Assembly (NCBI GenBank): GCA_036276755.1
Contig: DASUOG010000010.1
Span: 155 to 64,154, forward strand
Reading direction: 5' to 3'
From: Candidatus Saccharimonadales bacterium
GTDB taxonomy: Bacteria > Patescibacteriota > Saccharimonadia > Saccharimonadales > 2-12-FULL-41-12
DNA length: 64,000 nt
Below the pieces are notes generated by a model. That model did not search any database and was not told the origin of the DNA. It saw nothing but the letters and a program-made list of their open reading frames with translations. Below, piece after piece: positions 9,053 to 51,549 of the stretch. The position numbers and the translations under genes are program-made. Numbering within the stretch: position 1 is the first letter of the stretch; each line of letters starts with the position of its first letter.

Positions 9053-10120
9053 ATGGCAGAAAAGCTCGGCAGCAGATGGCGCAAAGTCATAACGATAGTT
9101 ACCTTTTTGGCTTTGCTGCTGTTGATTTATTTTTCGCGGCACGAGATAGCAGATACCTTTACCAGACTGTTTGAAATAAATTCGCTTATTTTATTACTCA
9201 TAGTATTTTTCCAGCTGGTAAATAACCATTCCTATGCCAAGATGTATCTCTCGCTGTTTAAGATAGTCGGCAAACGGCTGAAGTACCGGTCGATGTTCAG
9301 GGTGGCGCTTGAGGTGAACTTCGTGAACAACGTGTTCCCCACGGCCGGGCTTACCGGATTCTCTTATTTCGGCCTCCGCCTGCAGGAGTTCGGCATAAAT
9401 GCCGGTAAGGCTACATTGATACACCTGATGCGATTCGTGGGAGTATTCCTGTCATTCCAGATATTGATATTCTTCGGCTTGTTGTTCCTGGCAGTCGAAG
9501 GCAAGGTGAGCAACTTTACCATATTGGTCGCCAGCTCGCTGGCTACGCTGATAGTCGTCGGTACGGCCATGGTCGCTTACATCGTCGGCAGCCGTGAACG
9601 GATAGACAGTTTCTTCACTTGGATAACCAAGGCCGTCAATCGTGTCATACAGGTGGTGCGGCCGAAACATCCCGAAACCATCAAAGTCGAATCATCCAGG
9701 CGTATGTTTTTGGATCTGCATCGCGATTACAACATCATGCGTAAGAATTATGAAAAGCTCGGTCCATGGCTGGCTTATTCTTTACTGGCCAACGTTGCCG
9801 AAGTGGCCAGCATCTACATCATATATGTCGCTTTCGGCGACGTGGTCAACCCCGGAGCGATAATCATCGCTTATGTCATTGCTAATTTCGCCGGGTTCAT
9901 ATCGGTGTTACCAGGCGGTATCGGTATATATGAAGGCTTGATGGTGGCGGTATTGGCTACCGCGGGAATATCACCGGGAATCAGCATACCCGCAACGGTC
10001 ATGTACAGGGTACTTACTTCTGCTATCAAGTTGCCACCGGGCTATTACTTATATCAGAAGGCTATCGACCAATCCGGCTGGGAGAAAGACAAGGCCGGAG
10101 GCCCTTATGATAGGCAGTGA
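9053..10120 (+). CDS. flippase-like / lysylphosphatidylglycerol-synthase transmembrane-domain family protein
   Basis: 355-aa polytopic membrane protein. The N-terminal basic stretch, repeated TM helices and C-terminal GGIGIYEG motif are typical of the UPF0104 family. Confidence 0.65.
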   Translation: MAEKLGSRWRKVITIVTFLALLLLIYFSRHEIADTFTRLFEINSLILLLIVFFQLVNNHSYAKMYLSLFKIVGKRLKYRSMFRVALEVNFVNNVFPTAGLTGFSYFGLRLQEFGINAGKATLIHLMRFVGVFLSFQILIFFGLLFLAVEGKVSNFTILVASSLATLIVVGTAMVAYIVGSRERIDSFFTWITKAVNRVIQVVRPKHPETIKVESSRRMFLDLHRDYNIMRKNYEKLGPWLAYSLLANVAEVASIYIIYVAFGDVVNPGAIIIAYVIANFAGFISVLPGGIGIYEGLMVAVLATAGISPGISIPATVMYRVLTSAIKLPPGYYLYQKAIDQSGWEKDKAGGPYDRQ

Positions 10121-19987: not shown

Positions 19988-20401
19988 GTGTATATGAAGG
20001 CAAACGGAATAGTAATCAGGCACAAGCGCAACGGCACGAAATTCGGTTATCCGACGGCGAATATAGTGTTCGAGGATAAATCATTTAGCGGCCTGTTCGT
20101 CGGTAATACCAAGCTTTTGTCCACGGACGATGAAAAAGTCAAGCAGACGTTCGCCGGGCGGGAATTACCGTCGATAATATTCATCGGCACGGCGGAAACG
20201 CTGGATGAGACTGAGCACCGGCTGGAGTCGCATATCCTAGACTTTCCTTTGATCGACCTGTATGACAGCGAAATCGAGATTACGGTACTGGATAAACTGC
20301 GTGATAATAGAAAGTTCGAGAGTGTAGAGTTGCTTATCGAACAGATGAAAAAAGACGAGCGTGATGCCCGCCGCTGGTTCGCCAAAGAGAATCTGCGATG
20401 A
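19988..20401 (+). CDS. riboflavin kinase domain protein
   Basis: 137 aa. ..GTKFGYPTANI.., ..LESHILDF..DLYDSEIEITVLDKLRDNRKFESVELLIEQMKKDERDARRWF matches the RibF C-terminal kinase domain. Confidence 0.75.
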   Translation: MYMKANGIVIRHKRNGTKFGYPTANIVFEDKSFSGLFVGNTKLLSTDDEKVKQTFAGRELPSIIFIGTAETLDETEHRLESHILDFPLIDLYDSEIEITVLDKLRDNRKFESVELLIEQMKKDERDARRWFAKENLR

Positions 20402-21009
20402 TTGATGAACGGTTCGTCATATTGGCGGTCATTGTTAATTTTGCCGGGAGTTTAAATTACCTAGTTAACACTCTGAAAGGAGATACAAAGCCTAACCGTG
20501 TCACGTGGTTTTTGTGGGCACTATTTCCGATGATTGCTTTTAGTGCAATGCTTGATAAGGATGTTGGAACAACTCCCTTGGTCCTGACTTTTATGTCCGG
20601 ATTTATGCCATTAATGATCTTCTCAGGATCTTTTATTAACAGGAATGCTTTCTGGAAAATTACTAGATTTGATTGGACTTGCGGTATTTTATCCTTCGCA
20701 GGATTAATTCTATGGTTTATAACTCGTGAAGGTAATATAGCAATAGCGTTAAGTATACTAGCAGATGCTTTGGCGCTGCTTCCTACTCTCGTAAAGTCAT
20801 ATAAATTTCCCAAAACTGAGAGCTGGGCAGCTTTCGGCGGCGCTGCAGCTGCGGCTTTCATCACTATGTTAACAATAAAAGTTTGGACTTTTGCTGCAGT
20901 TGCATTTCCGCTTTATATATTTATCGTGTGTGTGATACTTTCTGTACTTATTAAATTTAAAATCGGTCCGAAACTGACACCAAGTATCAAAGGAATCCCC
21001 AATGATTGA
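20398..21009 (+). CDS. polytopic membrane protein, tandem paralog 1
   Basis: 203 aa with about 6-7 TM helices and motif KG-TKPNRVTWFLW. The start overlaps the riboflavin kinase stop (ATGA). Confidence 0.65.
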   Translation: MIDERFVILAVIVNFAGSLNYLVNTLKGDTKPNRVTWFLWALFPMIAFSAMLDKDVGTTPLVLTFMSGFMPLMIFSGSFINRNAFWKITRFDWTCGILSFAGLILWFITREGNIAIALSILADALALLPTLVKSYKFPKTESWAAFGGAAAAAFITMLTIKVWTFAAVAFPLYIFIVCVILSVLIKFKIGPKLTPSIKGIPND

Positions 21010-21607
21010 TGAACGGTTCGTCATATTGGCGGTCCTGGTGGATGTATGGGGCAGTCTGGCTTACGTCATCGACACGGCGAAAGGAATAACCAAACCGAAC
21101 CGTGTTACGTGGTTTTTGTGGACTCTTATACCGGTAGTCGCATTGGTCGGTATGTTTGACGAGAAGGCGAGTATGACTTCCATAATCTTAGTGGGGGTAT
21201 TCGGACTTATGCCGCTTATAATATTTATAACTTCGTTTTTAAACAAGAAAGCTTATTGGAAAATAACCCGTTTTGATTGGATTTGCGGTATTCTCTCCGC
21301 GGCCGGTATCCTAGCCTGGCTGGCAACCGGCAATGGTAATCTGACGATAATATTCTCGATGGTGGCCAACTTCTTCGCTTGGCTGCCGACTTTGGTAAAG
21401 GCCTTCCGGGTTCCGGATAGCGAAAGCTGGCTGGCATATTTTAACGGGGCGCTGGCCTCGTTTTTAACACTTTTGACAGTAGGACAATGGTCATTCGCTT
21501 CGGTTGCCCTGTTGATATATTTCACCATAAGCTGCAGCGTTACTTTCGCTTTGGTTAAGTTCAGACTAGGGCTGAAATTATTGAAACTACCCGGGGCGCA
21601 GACCTGA
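21002..21607 (+). CDS. polytopic membrane protein, tandem paralog 2
   Basis: 201 aa, roughly half the residues identical by eye to paralog 1. Its first 33 nt are identical to 20398-20430. Confidence 0.65.
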   Translation: MIDERFVILAVLVDVWGSLAYVIDTAKGITKPNRVTWFLWTLIPVVALVGMFDEKASMTSIILVGVFGLMPLIIFITSFLNKKAYWKITRFDWICGILSAAGILAWLATGNGNLTIIFSMVANFFAWLPTLVKAFRVPDSESWLAYFNGALASFLTLLTVGQWSFASVALLIYFTISCSVTFALVKFRLGLKLLKLPGAQT

Positions 21608-21619
21608 TATTATTATTGT

Positions 21620-22246
21620 ATGAAAGTAACCAAATACGAGCAAAGCTGTCTGCTAATAGAATATCGTGGGAGCAGAATATTGATCGATCCCGGATTTCCT
21701 TTTGCTGGCAGGCATGATATCTCAGAACTGGGCAGGCTGGATGCCGTATTCATTACCCATGAGCACCCTGATCATTTCGATAAAGATATGTGCGAAAAAC
21801 TGGCAGATGAAACGATAGTACATGTCAATGAGAGCACGGCCAAGCAATTAAATAATCCTAAGAAGATCGTCATTAAAAACCATGACTTGATAGAGGTAGG
21901 GAAATTCAAGATAAAGGTTATCGAACTGCCACACTGTCTGATGCCGGACGGCAGCGAAGGACCGCAAAATGCGGGGTATCTAATAAATGATAAATTGTTC
22001 CACCCAGGCGACGGGATAAAATTGGATGGTTTGAACGTAAAAAATCTGGCCTTGCCCATAACGGGCCCCGATATATCGCCTAAGGCAGCATTTGAGTTCG
22101 CCCGGCAAGTCGCGGCGAAGAAAGCGCTGGCTATCCATTATGATACTTTTGGAGCTAACGCGGATTATTATCAGGATCGCGCTAAGGCTACCAAGCAGCC
22201 GTTTAAGCTAGTAGTTTTGCGCCCCGGCGAATCAATGAAAATCTGA
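21620..22246 (+). CDS. MBL-fold metallo-hydrolase
   Basis: 208 aa with FITHEHPDHFD. TGaTATTAT lies 6 nt before the ATG. Confidence 0.8.
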   Translation: MKVTKYEQSCLLIEYRGSRILIDPGFPFAGRHDISELGRLDAVFITHEHPDHFDKDMCEKLADETIVHVNESTAKQLNNPKKIVIKNHDLIEVGKFKIKVIELPHCLMPDGSEGPQNAGYLINDKLFHPGDGIKLDGLNVKNLALPITGPDISPKAAFEFARQVAAKKALAIHYDTFGANADYYQDRAKATKQPFKLVVLRPGESMKI

Positions 22247-22383
22247 TGAATCCCGTAGTGAGCCTCCAGGTTGCTTTGCAAAGACTGTCAATATTCAATG
22301 GGGTTTTATTACATAAAGATAATTCAGTATCCAAAGAAAGATGTTTGTGTAACGAAAGTTCTTGGAGGTCTACTACGGGATGA
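22246..22383 (+). CDS. 45-codon ORF spanning the miniature element
   Basis: ATG overlaps the MBL stop (TGATG). The product is MNPVVSLQVALQRLSIFNGVLLHKDNSVSKERCLCNESSWRSTTG. The TGA overlaps the def ATG (ATGA). It is below the 60-aa cutoff of the track. Confidence 0.35.
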   Translation: MNPVVSLQVALQRLSIFNGVLLHKDNSVSKERCLCNESSWRSTTG

Positions 22384-22384
22384 A
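22246..22384 (+). mobile_element. miniature copy of start-codon-associated inverted-repeat element
   Basis: Layout: ATGAA (22246-50) | TCCCGTAGTGAGCCTCCAGG (22251-70) | ~90 nt | CTTGGAGGTCTACTACGGG (22361-79) | ATGAA (22380-84). The arms pair over 20 positions, allowing G-U pairs. Confidence 0.55.
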
Positions 22385-22922
22385 GATTACCGAATTCGGC
22401 AACCCAATACTGCGCCAAAAGCCTAAAAAACTGACCGTCAAAGAAATAAAATCCGAAACAACCCAAAGACTCATCAAGCGGATGCGTGAATTTTTGCTGA
22501 GCAAGAAACTGGGGGTCGGCTTGGCCGCGCCACAGGTCGGAAAAGGGTTAGCTCTGGCCGTCATTTGTATCCGACCGGTGGAACATCGGGAAGATGTAGA
22601 AGAATTCGATCTAGTGATAATCAATCCGGAGATCACCCGTACGTTCGGGCGAAGGGTGCAACAATGGGAAGGTTGTATCAGCGGCGGTTCGCTCAAAGGC
22701 GGATTATTTGCCAAGGTACCAAGATATAAAAAGCTGGAATTAAGCTATAAGGACGAAAAAGCCCGGCCTCAGAAAAAGGTTTTTGAAGGCTTGCCGGCGC
22801 ATGTGATACAGCACGAGATCGATCATTTAAACGGCGTGCTGTTCGTAGAAAAGGTTAAAGACCGCAGGACGTTCGTAACCTATAACGAATACGTCAAAAT
22901 CGCCAAATCGGACAAAAAATAA
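22380..22922 (+). CDS. def: peptide deformylase
   Basis: Motifs GVGLAAPQVG, EGCIS and HEIDHLNG. Start at ATG 22380 (MKITEFGNPILRQ) with GGAGG 12 nt upstream; tracked start 22362 lies inside the element arm. Confidence 0.9.
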   Translation: MKITEFGNPILRQKPKKLTVKEIKSETTQRLIKRMREFLLSKKLGVGLAAPQVGKGLALAVICIRPVEHREDVEEFDLVIINPEITRTFGRRVQQWEGCISGGSLKGGLFAKVPRYKKLELSYKDEKARPQKKVFEGLPAHVIQHEIDHLNGVLFVEKVKDRRTFVTYNEYVKIAKSDKK

Positions 22923-22925
22923 ATT

Positions 22926-23855
22926 TTAACTGACTAAAGTATCCAGCAACGCCATGCGTATGTAGAGTCCGTTGCCGGCCTGCTCGAAATATTTTGCACG
23001 CGAGTCCTTGTCAACCTCCGGGTCGATTTCGTCAATCCGCGGCAGGGGATGAAGTATGATCGAATCTTTCGGCAGCTTGGCGATGTTGGTCTTGGTCAGG
23101 GTGAAACCGCCGCTGTTTATGGAGCCGGGTTTTTCTAACCTTTCTTTTTGCAAACGGGTCCAATAAACTACGTCAGCGCCGGGAAAAACCTCGGTTACAT
23201 CGCTGGTCTCGTCATAAGTCGTGCCGCTTTTTTTCAGCATTTGTTTGATGTCCTTTTCCATCTGAAGTTCGGGTACGGAAACGAAACTTATATGGTTATT
23301 CGGGTACAAGGACATCAGGCGGCAAAGCGATCTGATGGTACGGCCGTATTTAAGGTCGCCACCGGCGACGATCCTAAGGTTGTCCAGGCGACCGAAATGC
23401 TTCTTTATCGTATAGGCATCCAAAAGCGCCTGGGTAGGATGTTCGCCGGTACCGTCGCCGGCATTGATAATCGGTATCTTGCTGACCGATGCGGCCTTGT
23501 TCGCCGCACCATTTTCACGGTGGCGGATTATTATCGCAGACAAGCCGTATTGATTAAGGACGTTTACCGTATCTTCTATAGTTTCGCCTTTGGCGGCTGA
23601 TGAAAATCCGGCCGCGTTTTCGGTGGATATGACATCAATGCCCAGTTTCAGCGCGGCTGTCTCAAAACTGAGCCGGGTCCTGGTAGAGGGTTCATAAAAA
23701 AGCGTGCATATCTGCTTGCCCGCGTATTTGCTTGATAGCTTTTTGGCGGCCACAGGATCATTCAGCCGGGTTTCTATGGATTCGGCAAGGGAGAACAACT
23801 CTTCTAATGTCGAGGTATCGAATTGATCTATCGACAGTACGTTTGAGATGCCCAT
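22926..23855 (-). CDS. pyrB: aspartate carbamoyltransferase catalytic subunit
   Basis: 309 aa. STRTRLSFE, HPTQALLD and HPLPR motifs. Confidence 0.92.
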   Translation of the reverse strand: MGISNVLSIDQFDTSTLEELFSLAESIETRLNDPVAAKKLSSKYAGKQICTLFYEPSTRTRLSFETAALKLGIDVISTENAAGFSSAAKGETIEDTVNVLNQYGLSAIIIRHRENGAANKAASVSKIPIINAGDGTGEHPTQALLDAYTIKKHFGRLDNLRIVAGGDLKYGRTIRSLCRLMSLYPNNHISFVSVPELQMEKDIKQMLKKSGTTYDETSDVTEVFPGADVVYWTRLQKERLEKPGSINSGGFTLTKTNIAKLPKDSIILHPLPRIDEIDPEVDKDSRAKYFEQAGNGLYIRMALLDTLVS

Positions 23856-23940
23856 ATCTGAATGGACATTCTGATGTATTTCCCGGGATAAATCAAGCGT
23901 CCGGGCTGGTATACTGTTTAATGAACCAAAAATTAAAAAG

Positions 23941-24264
23941 ATGAATCCCGTAGTGAGCCCTTGATTACGATTATGTTTTACGTTTATTTATTAAGGTCCA
24001 AAACAAGAATATACGTTGGCATAACAACCGACTTAAAAAAACGCGTCACAAAACATAACGCCGGTCAAAATGTATCAACGAAGGCCTATCTGCCCTGGAA
24101 ACTGATATTTTATGAAGCTTATATTAATCGTCAAGATGCCGCAAGACGTGAAAAATATTTAAAGACAACTCAAGGCAGGCAAGCAATAAGAAGGATGTTA
24201 AGATGTACTTTAGAGAATCAGAAATTAACACATTTTGACTATCAAGGATCTACTACGGGATGAA
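23941..24264 (+). mobile_element. GIY-YIG-encoding copy of start-codon-associated inverted-repeat element
   Basis: Layout: ATGAA (23941-45) | TCCCGTAGTGAGCCCTTGAT (23946-65) | GIY-YIG ORF | ATCAAGGATCTACTACGGG (24241-59) | ATGAA (24260-64). Confidence 0.6.
23961..24263 (+). CDS. GIY-YIG nuclease family protein (UPF0213-like)
   Basis: ..FYVYLLRSKTRIYVGITTDLKKRVTKHNAG.. and ..RREKYLKTTQGRQ.. The TTG start overlaps the stop of a 7-codon ORF (MNPVVSP). Alternative start ATG 23973. The stop overlaps the GH1 ATG. Confidence 0.8.
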   Translation: MITIMFYVYLLRSKTRIYVGITTDLKKRVTKHNAGQNVSTKAYLPWKLIFYEAYINRQDAARREKYLKTTQGRQAIRRMLRCTLENQKLTHFDYQGSTTG

Positions 24265-25528
24265 AGAAGAACAAAACGCAGCGATTTTCCCAAAACATTT
24301 TTTCTGGGGTGCAAGTGTGTCCGCGCATCAGGTTGAAGGCGGCAACCATAACCAGTGGACGGTCTGGGAGCTGGAAAATGCCACCCGGCTGGCGCAAACC
24401 GCGCATATAAGATTGGGAAGACTCTCGAGTTGGGAAAGGTTCAAAGACCAGGCTGAAGAACCTGATAATTACGTGTCCGGCGTTGCCGTGGACCACTACA
24501 ACCGTTACAGGGAAGACTTTGACTTGCTAGAAAAACTTAACCTTAATTCCTTCCGTTTTACTATCGAGTGGTCAAGGATCGAACCCGAAGAAGGCAAATG
24601 GAACCAGGAAGCCATAGAATATTACAGAAACTATATAAAAGAGCTAAGAAAACGCAAAATAGAGCCGTTCTTGAACATCTGGCATTGGACTCTGCCGGTA
24701 TGGTTCGCTGAAATAGACGGATTTGAGAAGAAAGACAATCTACGGTATTTTGAGAGGTTCGTCGAAAAGATATGTAAGTCGGGACTGTTGGATGAAGTCG
24801 AATATGTCCTGACAATTAATGAGCCGAGCAACTACGCGAGCTTCGGTTATCTGCTGGGCGAATGGCCGCCCCAACAGAAGAATTTCTGGAAGTTCGCCAA
24901 AGTTTATTGGAATATGACGAAAGTCCATAAGCAGTCTTATAAGATAATCAAGTCCCACAAACCGGCCATACAGGTGGGGTTGGCAATGATATTGGCCAAT
25001 ATTCAGGCCAAACACCCGCATAACATCCTTGATGAAGCCTCGACCAAGATTATGAGGTATATATGGAACTGGTGGTTTTTAAAGCGCATAAAGCGCAAGC
25101 TGGATTTTGTCGGTGTGAATTATTATTTCAGCGATTATTACACCGGTCTTGGCCGGCGTGAGAATCCTAAAGTTCCGGTAAGCGATTTGGGATGGTATGC
25201 AGAGCCGGAAGGGCTTTATCCGATTTTGCTCAGGACCTGGGCCAAGTTCAAGAAACCGATATTTGTTTCCGAAAGCGGTATAGCCGATCAGGATGATGAG
25301 CTTCGGCGCTGGTGGATACAGGAAAACCTGGTCGCTATGGAGCGCGCGCTTAGCGAGGGTGTCGATCTGCGCGGGTACTTTCACTGGAGCCTGCTGGATA
25401 ACTTCGAGTGGGCTTACGGCTGGTGGCCTAAGTTCGGGCTGGTCCGAGTAGATAGAAAAAACGGCATGAAACGGGCTATCCGGCCAAGTGCCAAGTGGTT
25501 CGCGAACTGGATTGCCAAGCTGGAGTAA
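24260..25528 (+). CDS. glycoside hydrolase family 1 (beta-glucosidase-like)
   Basis: 422 aa. FPKHFFWGASVSAHQVEGG, TINEP (acid/base), VSESG (nucleophile region) and the C-terminal WSLLDNFEW. Confidence 0.9.
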   Translation: MKEEQNAAIFPKHFFWGASVSAHQVEGGNHNQWTVWELENATRLAQTAHIRLGRLSSWERFKDQAEEPDNYVSGVAVDHYNRYREDFDLLEKLNLNSFRFTIEWSRIEPEEGKWNQEAIEYYRNYIKELRKRKIEPFLNIWHWTLPVWFAEIDGFEKKDNLRYFERFVEKICKSGLLDEVEYVLTINEPSNYASFGYLLGEWPPQQKNFWKFAKVYWNMTKVHKQSYKIIKSHKPAIQVGLAMILANIQAKHPHNILDEASTKIMRYIWNWWFLKRIKRKLDFVGVNYYFSDYYTGLGRRENPKVPVSDLGWYAEPEGLYPILLRTWAKFKKPIFVSESGIADQDDELRRWWIQENLVAMERALSEGVDLRGYFHWSLLDNFEWAYGWWPKFGLVRVDRKNGMKRAIRPSAKWFANWIAKLE

Positions 25529-51474: not shown

Positions 51475-51549
51475 GGTCCCATCGTCTAGCGGTTAGGACA
51501 TCAGGTTCTCATCCTGAAAACAGGGGTTCGATTCCCCTTGGGATCACCA
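51475..51549 (+). tRNA. tRNA-Glu (anticodon CUC), CCA encoded
   Basis: Manual cloverleaf. Acceptor GGTCCCA/TGGGATC (one G-U pair). D arm GTCT-AGCGGTTA-GGAC. Anticodon arm TCAGG-TTCTCAT-CCTGA. T arm AGGGG-TTCGATT-CCCCT. Discriminator A plus CCA. Confidence 0.9.

Follow-up and report, generated by a model that had tools for sequence, protein, structure and literature searches.

Ssn nucleases, single-domain GIY-YIG enzymes of 94 amino acids (CDD cd10448), are encoded by genes flanked on both sides by hairpin repeats termed NTS/SRM (PMC11893778). These enzymes bind the hairpin only as single-stranded DNA (ssDNA) and on one strand, cut a few nucleotides upstream at slightly variable positions, and retain their cutting activity on a hairpin divided between two oligonucleotides or given an extended loop; their authors (Chenal et al., Nat Commun 2025) noted an insertion sequence (IS)-like layout and the analogy with IS200/IS605 and REP-RAYT, with mobility not shown (PMC11893778). 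The present study examined two loci in a 64-kb window (the whole stretch of 64,000 nucleotides analysed, from contig DASUOG010000010.1 of a Candidatus Saccharimonadales bacterium) at which 20-nt arms that pair with one another enclose either the gene of a 96-amino-acid GIY-YIG nuclease (copy B) or no gene at all (copy A). Both are genuine insertions of one small mobile element, and they belong to a tiny transposable element family that is widespread in the Patescibacteria (candidate phyla radiation, CPR). GIY-YIG nucleases are not known as the driving enzymes of bacterial transposons. We propose, with a probability of roughly 0.6, that the element is moved by its own GIY-YIG protein, which would act on the ssDNA stem in the manner of Ssn while the host completes the move; sequence comparison and analogy with Ssn point this way.

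The resemblance to Ssn takes in the size of the single-domain enzyme (94 amino acids there, 96 here), the catalytic spacing (Y6/Y17/E64 in SsnA and Y3/Y14/E60 here, a likeness drawn from the published description), the bracketing of the gene by hairpin-forming inverted repeats with many solo repeats between genes, and the stem core (ATTCCCG...CGGGAAT in NTS, ATCCCG...CGGGAT here). The split hairpin or enlarged loop that Ssn tolerates is what an enclosed gene amounts to in the present element. The two systems differ in that Ssn has a local compact hairpin on each flank whereas the arms here pair across the whole element, in the invariant tandem of G·T and A·C mismatches in the stems studied here, and in the target-site duplications (TSDs), empty sites and start-codon insertion, none of which has been reported for Ssn.

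Bacterial miniature inverted-repeat transposable elements (MITEs) and palindromic repeats, such as the Correia elements of Neisseria, ERIC and the Rickettsia palindromic elements (RPEs), are alike in their length of 100–150 bp, their long imperfect hairpin, their terminal inverted repeats (TIRs) with a short TSD, their many copies in transcribed regions near genes and the greater number of the gene-less form. Some are attributed to DDE transposases and others lack a known enzyme, the TSD in these elements is a fixed dinucleotide (TA, for example), and RPEs insert in frame inside open reading frames (ORFs); we know of none reported on start codons with the ATG rebuilt, and of none with a GIY-YIG partner. 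IS200/IS605 and REP-RAYT systems use a Y1 HUH transposase with a covalent intermediate, produce no TSD and carry separate subterminal hairpins at each end. The present elements would share with them the recognition of hairpin ends in ssDNA, and do share very small size, short specific targets, a strand or orientation bias (81:20 here) and the spread of solo hairpin repeats (REP), but have TSDs in most copies, no HUH protein and a single end-to-end stem. GIY-YIG homing endonucleases (I-TevI, T4 Seg) have the same catalytic domain in a selfish gene that lies between host genes or at their edge and points the same way as the gene downstream; they differ in having a long DNA-binding domain and one long cognate target, and their recombination-dependent homing involves no TIRs, TSDs or gene-less derivatives.

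A literature search returned no bacterial GIY-YIG element with TIRs and TSDs, no CPR MITEs, and no transposon reported to sit on a host start codon and rebuild it. Of the classical marks of IS and MITEs, the family shows TIRs, a TSD, empty sites and copies at many non-homologous sites, and between its arms there is no DDE, HUH, serine or tyrosine recombinase. We would class it with known kinds, namely as a MITE/IS-like element with an Ssn-like nuclease and hairpin repeats. Two of its features were not found described: a GIY-YIG gene as the sole gene of a TIR/TSD element, and start-codon insertion with regeneration of the ATG. With precise empty sites, duplications and hundreds of copies, it offers a test case for the idea, raised by the Ssn authors, that single-domain GIY-YIG nucleases with flanking hairpins are mobile elements or derive from them, and its paired arms and 96-amino-acid enzyme may widen the specificities of the ssDNA-cutting toolbox proposed for Ssn. 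The first-pass annotation, a model's reading of the letters alone, knew of no family with this architecture, which agrees with our literature search as regards a GIY-YIG TIR/TSD element but overlooked the close precedent of Ssn/NTS (PMC11893778).

Insertions, empty sites and host genes in the window

The features of the two loci are as follows.

22251–22380, unstranded: copy A, a miniature non-autonomous element of 130 nt, TCCCGTAGTGAG...TCTACTACGGGA, without a gene
22251–22270 and 22361–22380: arms of copy A
22247–22250, plus strand: left TSD copy of A, TGAA, which with host A 22246 formed the original def start codon
22381–22384, plus strand: right TSD copy of A, TGAA, bases 2–5 of the def coding sequence
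22246–22383, plus strand: 45-codon ORF from the left ATG through copy A to a stop in the ATGA on the def start
22380–22922, plus strand: def (peptide deformylase), the host gene whose start codon was struck by copy A
23946–24260, unstranded: copy B, a full-length element of 315 nt carrying the GIY-YIG gene
23946–23965 and 24241–24260: arms of copy B
23942–23945, plus strand: left TSD copy of B, TGAA, which with A 23941 formed the original GH1 start codon
24261–24264, plus strand: right TSD copy of B, TGAA
23941–23964, plus strand: 7-codon ORF (MNPVVSP, stop), opened by the left ATG and ending 8 nt before the GIY-YIG ATG
23973–24263, plus strand: gene of the 96-amino-acid single-domain GIY-YIG nuclease (PF01541, E = 2.8e-16)
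24260–25528, plus strand: GH1 beta-glucosidase, the host gene whose start codon was struck by copy B

Relatives with empty sites were found through GH1 homologues at 78–86% identity (contigs L083, L084 and L085), while exact-protein look-ups of the window's def and GH1 returned the same strain only, with both sites filled. Contig L083, whose GH1 is 86% identical, has the gene order of the window (metallo-beta-lactamase (MBL)-fold hydrolase, def, pyrB on the minus strand, GH1 glycosidase), and neither site carries the element: the MBL–def junction reads CCAATGAAAATAAC, with a single ATGAA, and the pyrB–GH1 spacer is 87 nt long, ending ...AAATAAAAATGAAAGAAGAAAAAAAC. The start of GH1 is empty in all three contigs, reading ...ATGAAAGAAGAA..., and the element is missing from their pyrB–GH1 spacers. 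The window sites read ATGAA, TCCCG...CGGGA and TGAA in succession where each empty site has one ATGAA, so that the elements are 22251–22380 and 23946–24260, each lying between duplicated TGAA. Since the copies differ between relatives as close as 86% in GH1, insertion was fairly recent, and the host genes do work in the absence of the element, as the empty sites demonstrate. Within the window, the MBL stop TGA (22244–22246) overlaps the original def start to the left of copy A. The first-pass annotation had predicted that removing copy A would restore a stop/start overlap between these genes and had proposed a search for such empty junctions; syntenic L083 supplied both the empty site and the overlap, CCAATGAAAATAACTGAATTCGG, and three relatives supplied the empty GH1 site.

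Copies A and B share 20 identical nucleotides at their left ends (GATGAATCCCGTAGTGAGCC) and 16 at their right ends (TCTACTACGGGATGAA), and the window contains the 9-mer TCCCGTAGT exactly four times, always at their arms. The layout first reported (ATGAA, 20-nt arms, cargo) is present at the coordinates given for it, and sequence comparison bore out that the inner arm halves differ between the copies yet remain complementary within each: the outer 12–14 nt are common and the inner 8 nt differ. The right-hand ATGs are indeed the starts of def and GH1, as both N-termini align from residue 1 with element-free relatives. The duplication of ATGAA stands as a duplication, with its extent revised: the TSD is TGNN, mostly 4 nt, and the right-hand A belongs to the element, A 22380 and A 24260 being at once the terminal bases of copies A and B and the first bases of the def and GH1 start codons.

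Copy A had been taken for a deletion derivative of B, a view that is rejected here, since the interiors are alike only at chance level: their local alignment score was 10 against a shuffle mean of 9.5, and 126 of 300 shuffles scored as high. The relatives of copy A lie at other sites and are 70–75% identical (L157, L122, L179); copy A belongs to a miniature subfamily of its own. A promoter and terminator scan of 21500–24500 gave nothing exceeding shuffle expectation.

The family in Patescibacteria and its target sites

A scan at one genome per species returned 412 relatives of the GIY-YIG protein, and the best 80 of these 412 loci were analysed; a metagenome scan with the two-arm pattern returned at least 120 loci and yielded 121 usable miniatures of 118–147 nt, and all miniature counts given here are among the matches listed. 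Close homologues of the protein numbered 61, the named ones all from Patescibacteria, and a library of 50%-identity representatives held 7,442 relatives at E ≤ 1e-3 and 900 at E ≤ 1e-10. The best 80 loci were almost all labelled as CPR lineages (Saccharibacteria, Parcubacteria/Paceibacterota, Peribacteria, Doudna-, Uhr-, Falkow- and Moranbacteria, and Kazan), with a few labelled 'bacterium' alone. Arm searches in these 80 CPR genome loci found about 46 arm pairs, 13 gene-less copies of 65–143 nt among them. The search of relatives with arms and protein that the first-pass annotation had suggested thus brought out about 46 pairs in CPR genomes and at least 120 metagenome miniatures, and these, together with the empty sites, uphold its view of a mobile element with an autonomous and a MITE-like form.

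Full-length copies measure about 310–320 bp and hold one gene, while gene-less copies are commonly about 120–147 bp and also occur at about 30–95 bp. More than 30 full-length copies from several CPR phyla carry GIY-YIG as the sole gene between the arms, near a conserved GATTATG, and most of the 80 loci have either cognate arms or a compact upstream hairpin with the same core. The left arm generally lies about 26 nt before the GIY-YIG ATG and the right arm over or just past its stop, and in the gene-carrying copies among the roughly 46 genome-locus elements the gene is always co-oriented with, and directly upstream of, the host gene. Copies may be numerous within one genome: Hain-H43 has at least six miniatures on one 0.70-Mb contig (judged by contig names) and a seventh locus on a second contig of that assembly, with pairwise identities of 61–91% over both contigs. 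In locus L069 a full-length copy and a miniature both bear a rare GTAGAG/GTAGAA arm variant. The interiors of miniatures could be aligned within subfamilies only; a hidden RNA or peptide was considered and set aside, as no interior was conserved across subfamilies.

Short forms with the same core include compact hairpins of 29–41 nt and copies of 56–86 nt. A 33-nt compact hairpin (TCCCGTAGTGAAAGCTTCGCTTCTACTACAGGA) with the same ends and mismatch core is nested within a miniature at L106 743–775, L113 1904–1936 and about 3612 of L113, which suggests a size continuum from SRM-like hairpins through MITEs to gene-carrying copies. Some lineages, Peribacteria among them, have a GIY-YIG gene that lies outside any arm pair, with a compact same-core hairpin upstream (e.g., GTCCTGTAGT-TGCGCGAAGCGCA-TACTACGGGAC); such genes were seen in L028, L036, L039, L046, L055, L057, L058 and L073, with the hairpin just upstream of position 10001 or of the GIY-YIG start, and also in L027, L051 and L059, and L027 and L059 carry two compact hairpins of opposite polarity in tandem. 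At L001 9960–9990 a right-arm fragment adjoins the left arm of a full-length copy in a palindromic junction, AACTACGGGATCCCGTAGT, and back-to-back arms also occur in L023 and L063; these look like tandem or nested insertions or remnants.

Target-site duplication is general in the family. Most of the roughly 46 genome arm pairs are abutted by a perfect 3–5-nt direct repeat of variable sequence (TGAA, TGGA, TATG, TTGA, TTAG, CAAG, CAAA, TATAA, TTCAC and others), and a perfect 4-nt repeat flanks 80 of the 121 miniatures. In the miniatures on start codons, the TSD measured 4 nt in 65, 5 nt in 12, 3 nt in 6 and 2 nt in 5, and was decayed in 12.

TIRs, a short variable TSD and abundant gene-less copies are the classic signature of a MITE, and the elements could be a conventional TIR family moved in trans by a DDE-type transposase, with GIY-YIG as a passenger or an addiction or homing gene. 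The absence of any IS-encoded GIY-YIG from our literature search agrees with such a history, and to our knowledge GIY-YIG enzymes are hydrolytic nucleases without strand-transfer activity. We nevertheless consider this unlikely, given that GIY-YIG is the sole gene, at a fixed distance from the left arm and near GATTATG, in the more than 30 full-length copies, that the same-core compact hairpin is kept beside the gene even where the gene is not enclosed, and that an arm variant co-occurs in the full-length and miniature copies of L069; nor was a transposase gene noticed beside the elements, in loci that were not searched systematically for one.

The ATG at the junction opened an outward ORF of at least 60 codons in 101 of the 121 miniatures (83%), against 28% of control ATGRA sites in the same loci; several of the other 20 had TATG duplications or shorter ORFs. 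Genome-locus elements had a start codon at the junction in 27–28 of 46 cases. The first-pass annotation had proposed to tabulate whether the right end always abuts a start codon; it does so in the large majority of miniatures, and the subfamilies ending in C...G often behave differently. The junction ORFs of the 101 start-codon miniatures formed 78 clusters, including genes that from the look of their N-termini we take to encode methionine aminopeptidase, ribosome recycling factor, ribosomal protein L35 and a PilT-like ATPase, and those resembling named proteins began at normal N-termini. Among 88 start-codon miniatures, the left codon was ATG in 79 and GTG in 9 while the right was always ATG. 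The A is therefore contributed by the element, as its final base, and insertion has turned GTG starts into ATG. The T...A-ended subfamily, that of the window, has as its target RTGNN at a start codon, entered between R and TGNN, and its terminal A rebuilds the ATG even from GTG.

Some four-fifths of the copies lie on, and rebuild, the start codon of a host gene, which raises the question of how such sites are found, or whether copies have survived only there. A rough estimate suggests that survival of intergenic RTG insertions alone would place about 1 in 6 copies on a start codon, and on that expectation some real targeting, or strong selection for the exact position, seems to be needed; start codons could dominate through targeting, through the survival of insertions that do no harm, or through the two together.

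More distant GIY-YIG paralogues (about 40% identity) lie directly 5' of, or overlap, tRNA genes at L032 7545–7910 and at L054 3989–4400 and 14592–14990. The neighbouring genes are tRNA-Cys, tRNA-Gln and tRNA-Thr, and the 5' part of the tRNA is duplicated upstream next to a hairpin of the GTC type. The arrangement appears to follow the rule seen at start codons, with the 5' end of a gene entered and an intact gene regenerated downstream.

Pairing of the arms and consequences for translation

The elements are bounded by 20-bp imperfect inverted repeats, TCCCGTAGTGA... / ...TCTACTACGGGA, which are kept mutually complementary. Pairing was evaluated on pseudo-hairpins from 64 distinct elements, made by joining 22 nt from each end with GAAA. 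Standard pairs occupied 87.9% of stem cells against 69.7% in shuffles, 17 of the 22 stem pairs changed on both sides, and none of 500 shuffles reached the observed values; sliding the partners abolished the signal, which spans 20 bp. The arm-helix covariation analysis that had been proposed at the outset accordingly gave a 20-bp covarying stem with an invariant tandem mismatch at positions 10–11, column 10 being G·U in 63 of 64 elements and column 11 unpaired (A·C) in all 64. Inner arm halves that differ and still pair imply that pairing itself is under selection, as had been argued from copies A and B alone.

The molecule in which the arms pair bears on a further alternative, that the stem acts as RNA: once transcribed, the hairpin would regulate the translation of the gene behind it, insulate it, or undergo processing (e.g., by RNase III), and the arms would be conserved on that account. 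Copy A is predicted to fold into a single long hairpin of −51.3 kcal/mol (z = −6.3; 0 of 200 shuffles were as good), and a stem of such stability, placed within transcription units and at a start codon, would suit an RNA role, as would the chained ORFs of the window. The first-pass annotation had also noted G-U pairs present on the plus strand only. These do not indicate RNA, since the tandem contains one G·T and one A·C whichever strand is read and is thus uninformative on strand or RNA, and the arms occur in both orientations. With respect to the host gene, 81 miniatures had the arm pair in one orientation and 20 in the other, with copy A in the minority class, and it occurs in both orientations relative to the GIY-YIG gene. 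The sense strand folded better in 65 of 81 miniatures of the majority orientation, a point in favour of RNA, and in 10 of 20 of the minority. Outside the tandem, G·U outnumbered A·C on the sense strand by 17 to 7 in the majority class, whereas A·C prevailed by 13 to 9 in the minority class. An invariant A·C mismatch, the working of host genes at empty sites and the scan against Rfam 15 also speak against RNA: at the gathering score, the window returned one tRNA gene (51475–51546) and nothing else, and there was no relevant match at E ≤ 1 in 22150–24350. RNA effects, moreover, may follow from insertion rather than explain the arms. We consider an RNA-level stem very improbable as the explanation; the family is better described as a DNA-level element with a 4:1 orientation bias, which could reflect replication or transcription strandedness, and RNA effects are probably secondary.

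The chaining of reading frames and the translational coupling drawn from it are present in the window and do not extend to the family. In the window the chain runs from the MBL stop and left ATG through the 45-codon ORF and ATGA to def at copy A, and from the 7-codon ORF through the GIY-YIG ORF and ATGA to GH1 at copy B. Among 61 miniatures with a left-ATG ORF, only 3 had it end on the right ATG; in the remaining 58 it stopped 22–123 nt earlier, and miniature length showed no frame preference. A short left-ATG ORF like that of copy B was seen by eye in several relatives with the same arm orientation and not in those with flipped arms. The 45-codon ORF of copy A may provide coupled translation at def. 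The idea that the right arm supplies a Shine-Dalgarno (SD) motif had to be abandoned as a feature of the family: GGAG or GAGG lay upstream of either ATG copy in 2 of 88 miniatures each, and the inner arms vary widely and are mostly AT-rich. The hosts seem largely SD-independent and the arms are not a general SD source, and the elements raise the question of how an AUG located at the base of a 20-bp stem is used for initiation in CPR bacteria, in which SD motifs are scarce. For annotation, the elements create spurious short ORFs and can mislead start-codon calls in CPR genomes.

The nuclease and the proposed mechanism

The identification of the cargo of copy B as a GIY-YIG protein was borne out by PF01541 (E = 2.8e-16), which covers residues 5–73 of the scanned 100-amino-acid form, or about 1–69 of the 96-amino-acid protein. 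The longer form, starting at TTG 23961, was the one first annotated; all 43 aligned homologues start at MFYVY, which places the true start at ATG 23973. The only other Pfam match was T5orf172, below its cut-off, NCBIfam assigned no family, a tblastn search against plasmids gave no match, and GIY-YIG is the only ORF between the arms of copy B with a family match, with no HUH protein there. In the 43 homologues the catalytic residues Y3, Y14 and E60 are invariant and R24 nearly so. The last seven codons (YQGSTTG) fall in the right arm, and the stop TGA (24261–24263) lies in the TSD, outside the element; this C-terminal YQGSTTG is conserved in homologues and the 15 residues before it are not. The structure of the 96-amino-acid protein was predicted as one compact domain (pLDDT 87) with the arm-encoded tail at low confidence and predicted to be disordered. 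Among the GIY-YIG representatives P0182–P0330, many are 105–130 amino acids long with the domain starting at residue 25–45; these may be gene calls from the upstream (duplicated host) start codon or have true N-terminal extensions.

The catalytic domain, a weak match to TIGR01453, a model of group I intron endonucleases (E = 0.007, well short of the cut-off), and insertion beside conserved genes could together be read as a free-standing GIY-YIG homing endonuclease gene with one cognate site in a conserved host gene. With a protein of 96 amino acids in one domain and no DNA-binding domain, at least 78 unrelated host genes that have only RTGNN in common, gene-less copies far outnumbering gene-carrying ones, and TSDs, which are not a feature of homing, we find this scarcely plausible.

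Under the reading that we favour, the GIY-YIG protein would be the mobility enzyme of the element, acting as Ssn nucleases do. The arms would pair on ssDNA, with the whole element forming the loop, and the protein would read the foot of the stem and the mismatch and nick each strand a few nucleotides to the 5' side of that foot. Nicks about 4 nt from the foot on both strands would leave a stagger of about 4 nt and give the observed duplication, and ligation or repair by the host would finish the move. The host gene would stay expressed because the start codon is regenerated at the junction, possibly aided in the window by the ATGA stop/start overlaps and elsewhere through independent initiation in largely SD-independent hosts. 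What ties the nuclease to the arms is their presence, or that of a same-core hairpin, at most of the 80 loci, the variant shared in L069 and the conserved catalytic residues; by analogy with Ssn, a TSD of mostly 4 nt with a scatter of 2–5 nt is compatible with Ssn-like cutting.

Several points weigh against this proposal. A hydrolytic GIY-YIG nuclease cannot join DNA by itself, and a trans-acting transposase may be encoded at some other place in the genomes, which are incomplete. Each hairpin is cut once by SsnA, and no Ssn has been shown to transpose (PMC11893778). The nearest solved relatives of the protein were UPF0213 (E = 1e-7) and Slx1. The SRM consensus, HGTCWYN(0-2)YYVSBRHN(0-5)WNVSBRGN(0-2)RNCYNB, was not matched anywhere in the window; 1.2 Mb of related loci yielded 7 matches against 3 in shuffles, none at the arms, and the arms lack the GTC motif that SRM has 5' of the stem. 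Subfamilies ending in C...G often lie at stop codons or in spacers (with TSDs such as TTGA, TTAG, CAAG and TATAA), and the start-codon bias could owe much to purifying selection. We hold only tentatively, at somewhat less than even odds, the bolder view that the family represents an unrecognised class of prokaryotic transposon in which an Ssn-type nuclease would serve an integration actively directed to RTG, with the terminal A regenerating the ATG; if true, this would be the first known case of mobile DNA that seeks out start codons as such.

The same precedent admits a domesticated role, in which the hairpins would be sites for a host-owned ssDNA nuclease of Ssn type that restricts or shapes incoming transforming DNA, the spread of copies being past and the repeats now serving to control genome dynamics instead of behaving as a selfish transposon. 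Ssn/NTS affects natural transformation (PMC11893778), Saccharibacteria are described as naturally competent (PMC10187176), and canonical NTS-like hairpins occur in the CPR loci L033 and L045. Such a role leaves unexplained the precise duplications, the start-codon positions and the regenerated ATG, and copies that differ between relatives with 86% GH1 identity indicate fairly recent insertion; as a full account it appears improbable, and it and a transposon role are not mutually exclusive.

The canonical NTS/SRM-like hairpins (TGTCATTCCCGTGAAGACGGGAATCCAG and similar) were seen at L045 1012–1085 and at L033 2112–2140 and 12275–12303; those of L045 form an inverted pair in a spacer, with no ssn-like gene adjoining. 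Just upstream of the MBL gene, the window also holds two tandem paralogous genes (20398–21009 and 21002–21607) for small membrane proteins of about 200 amino acids, which both start MIDERFVILAV and overlap by 8 nt.

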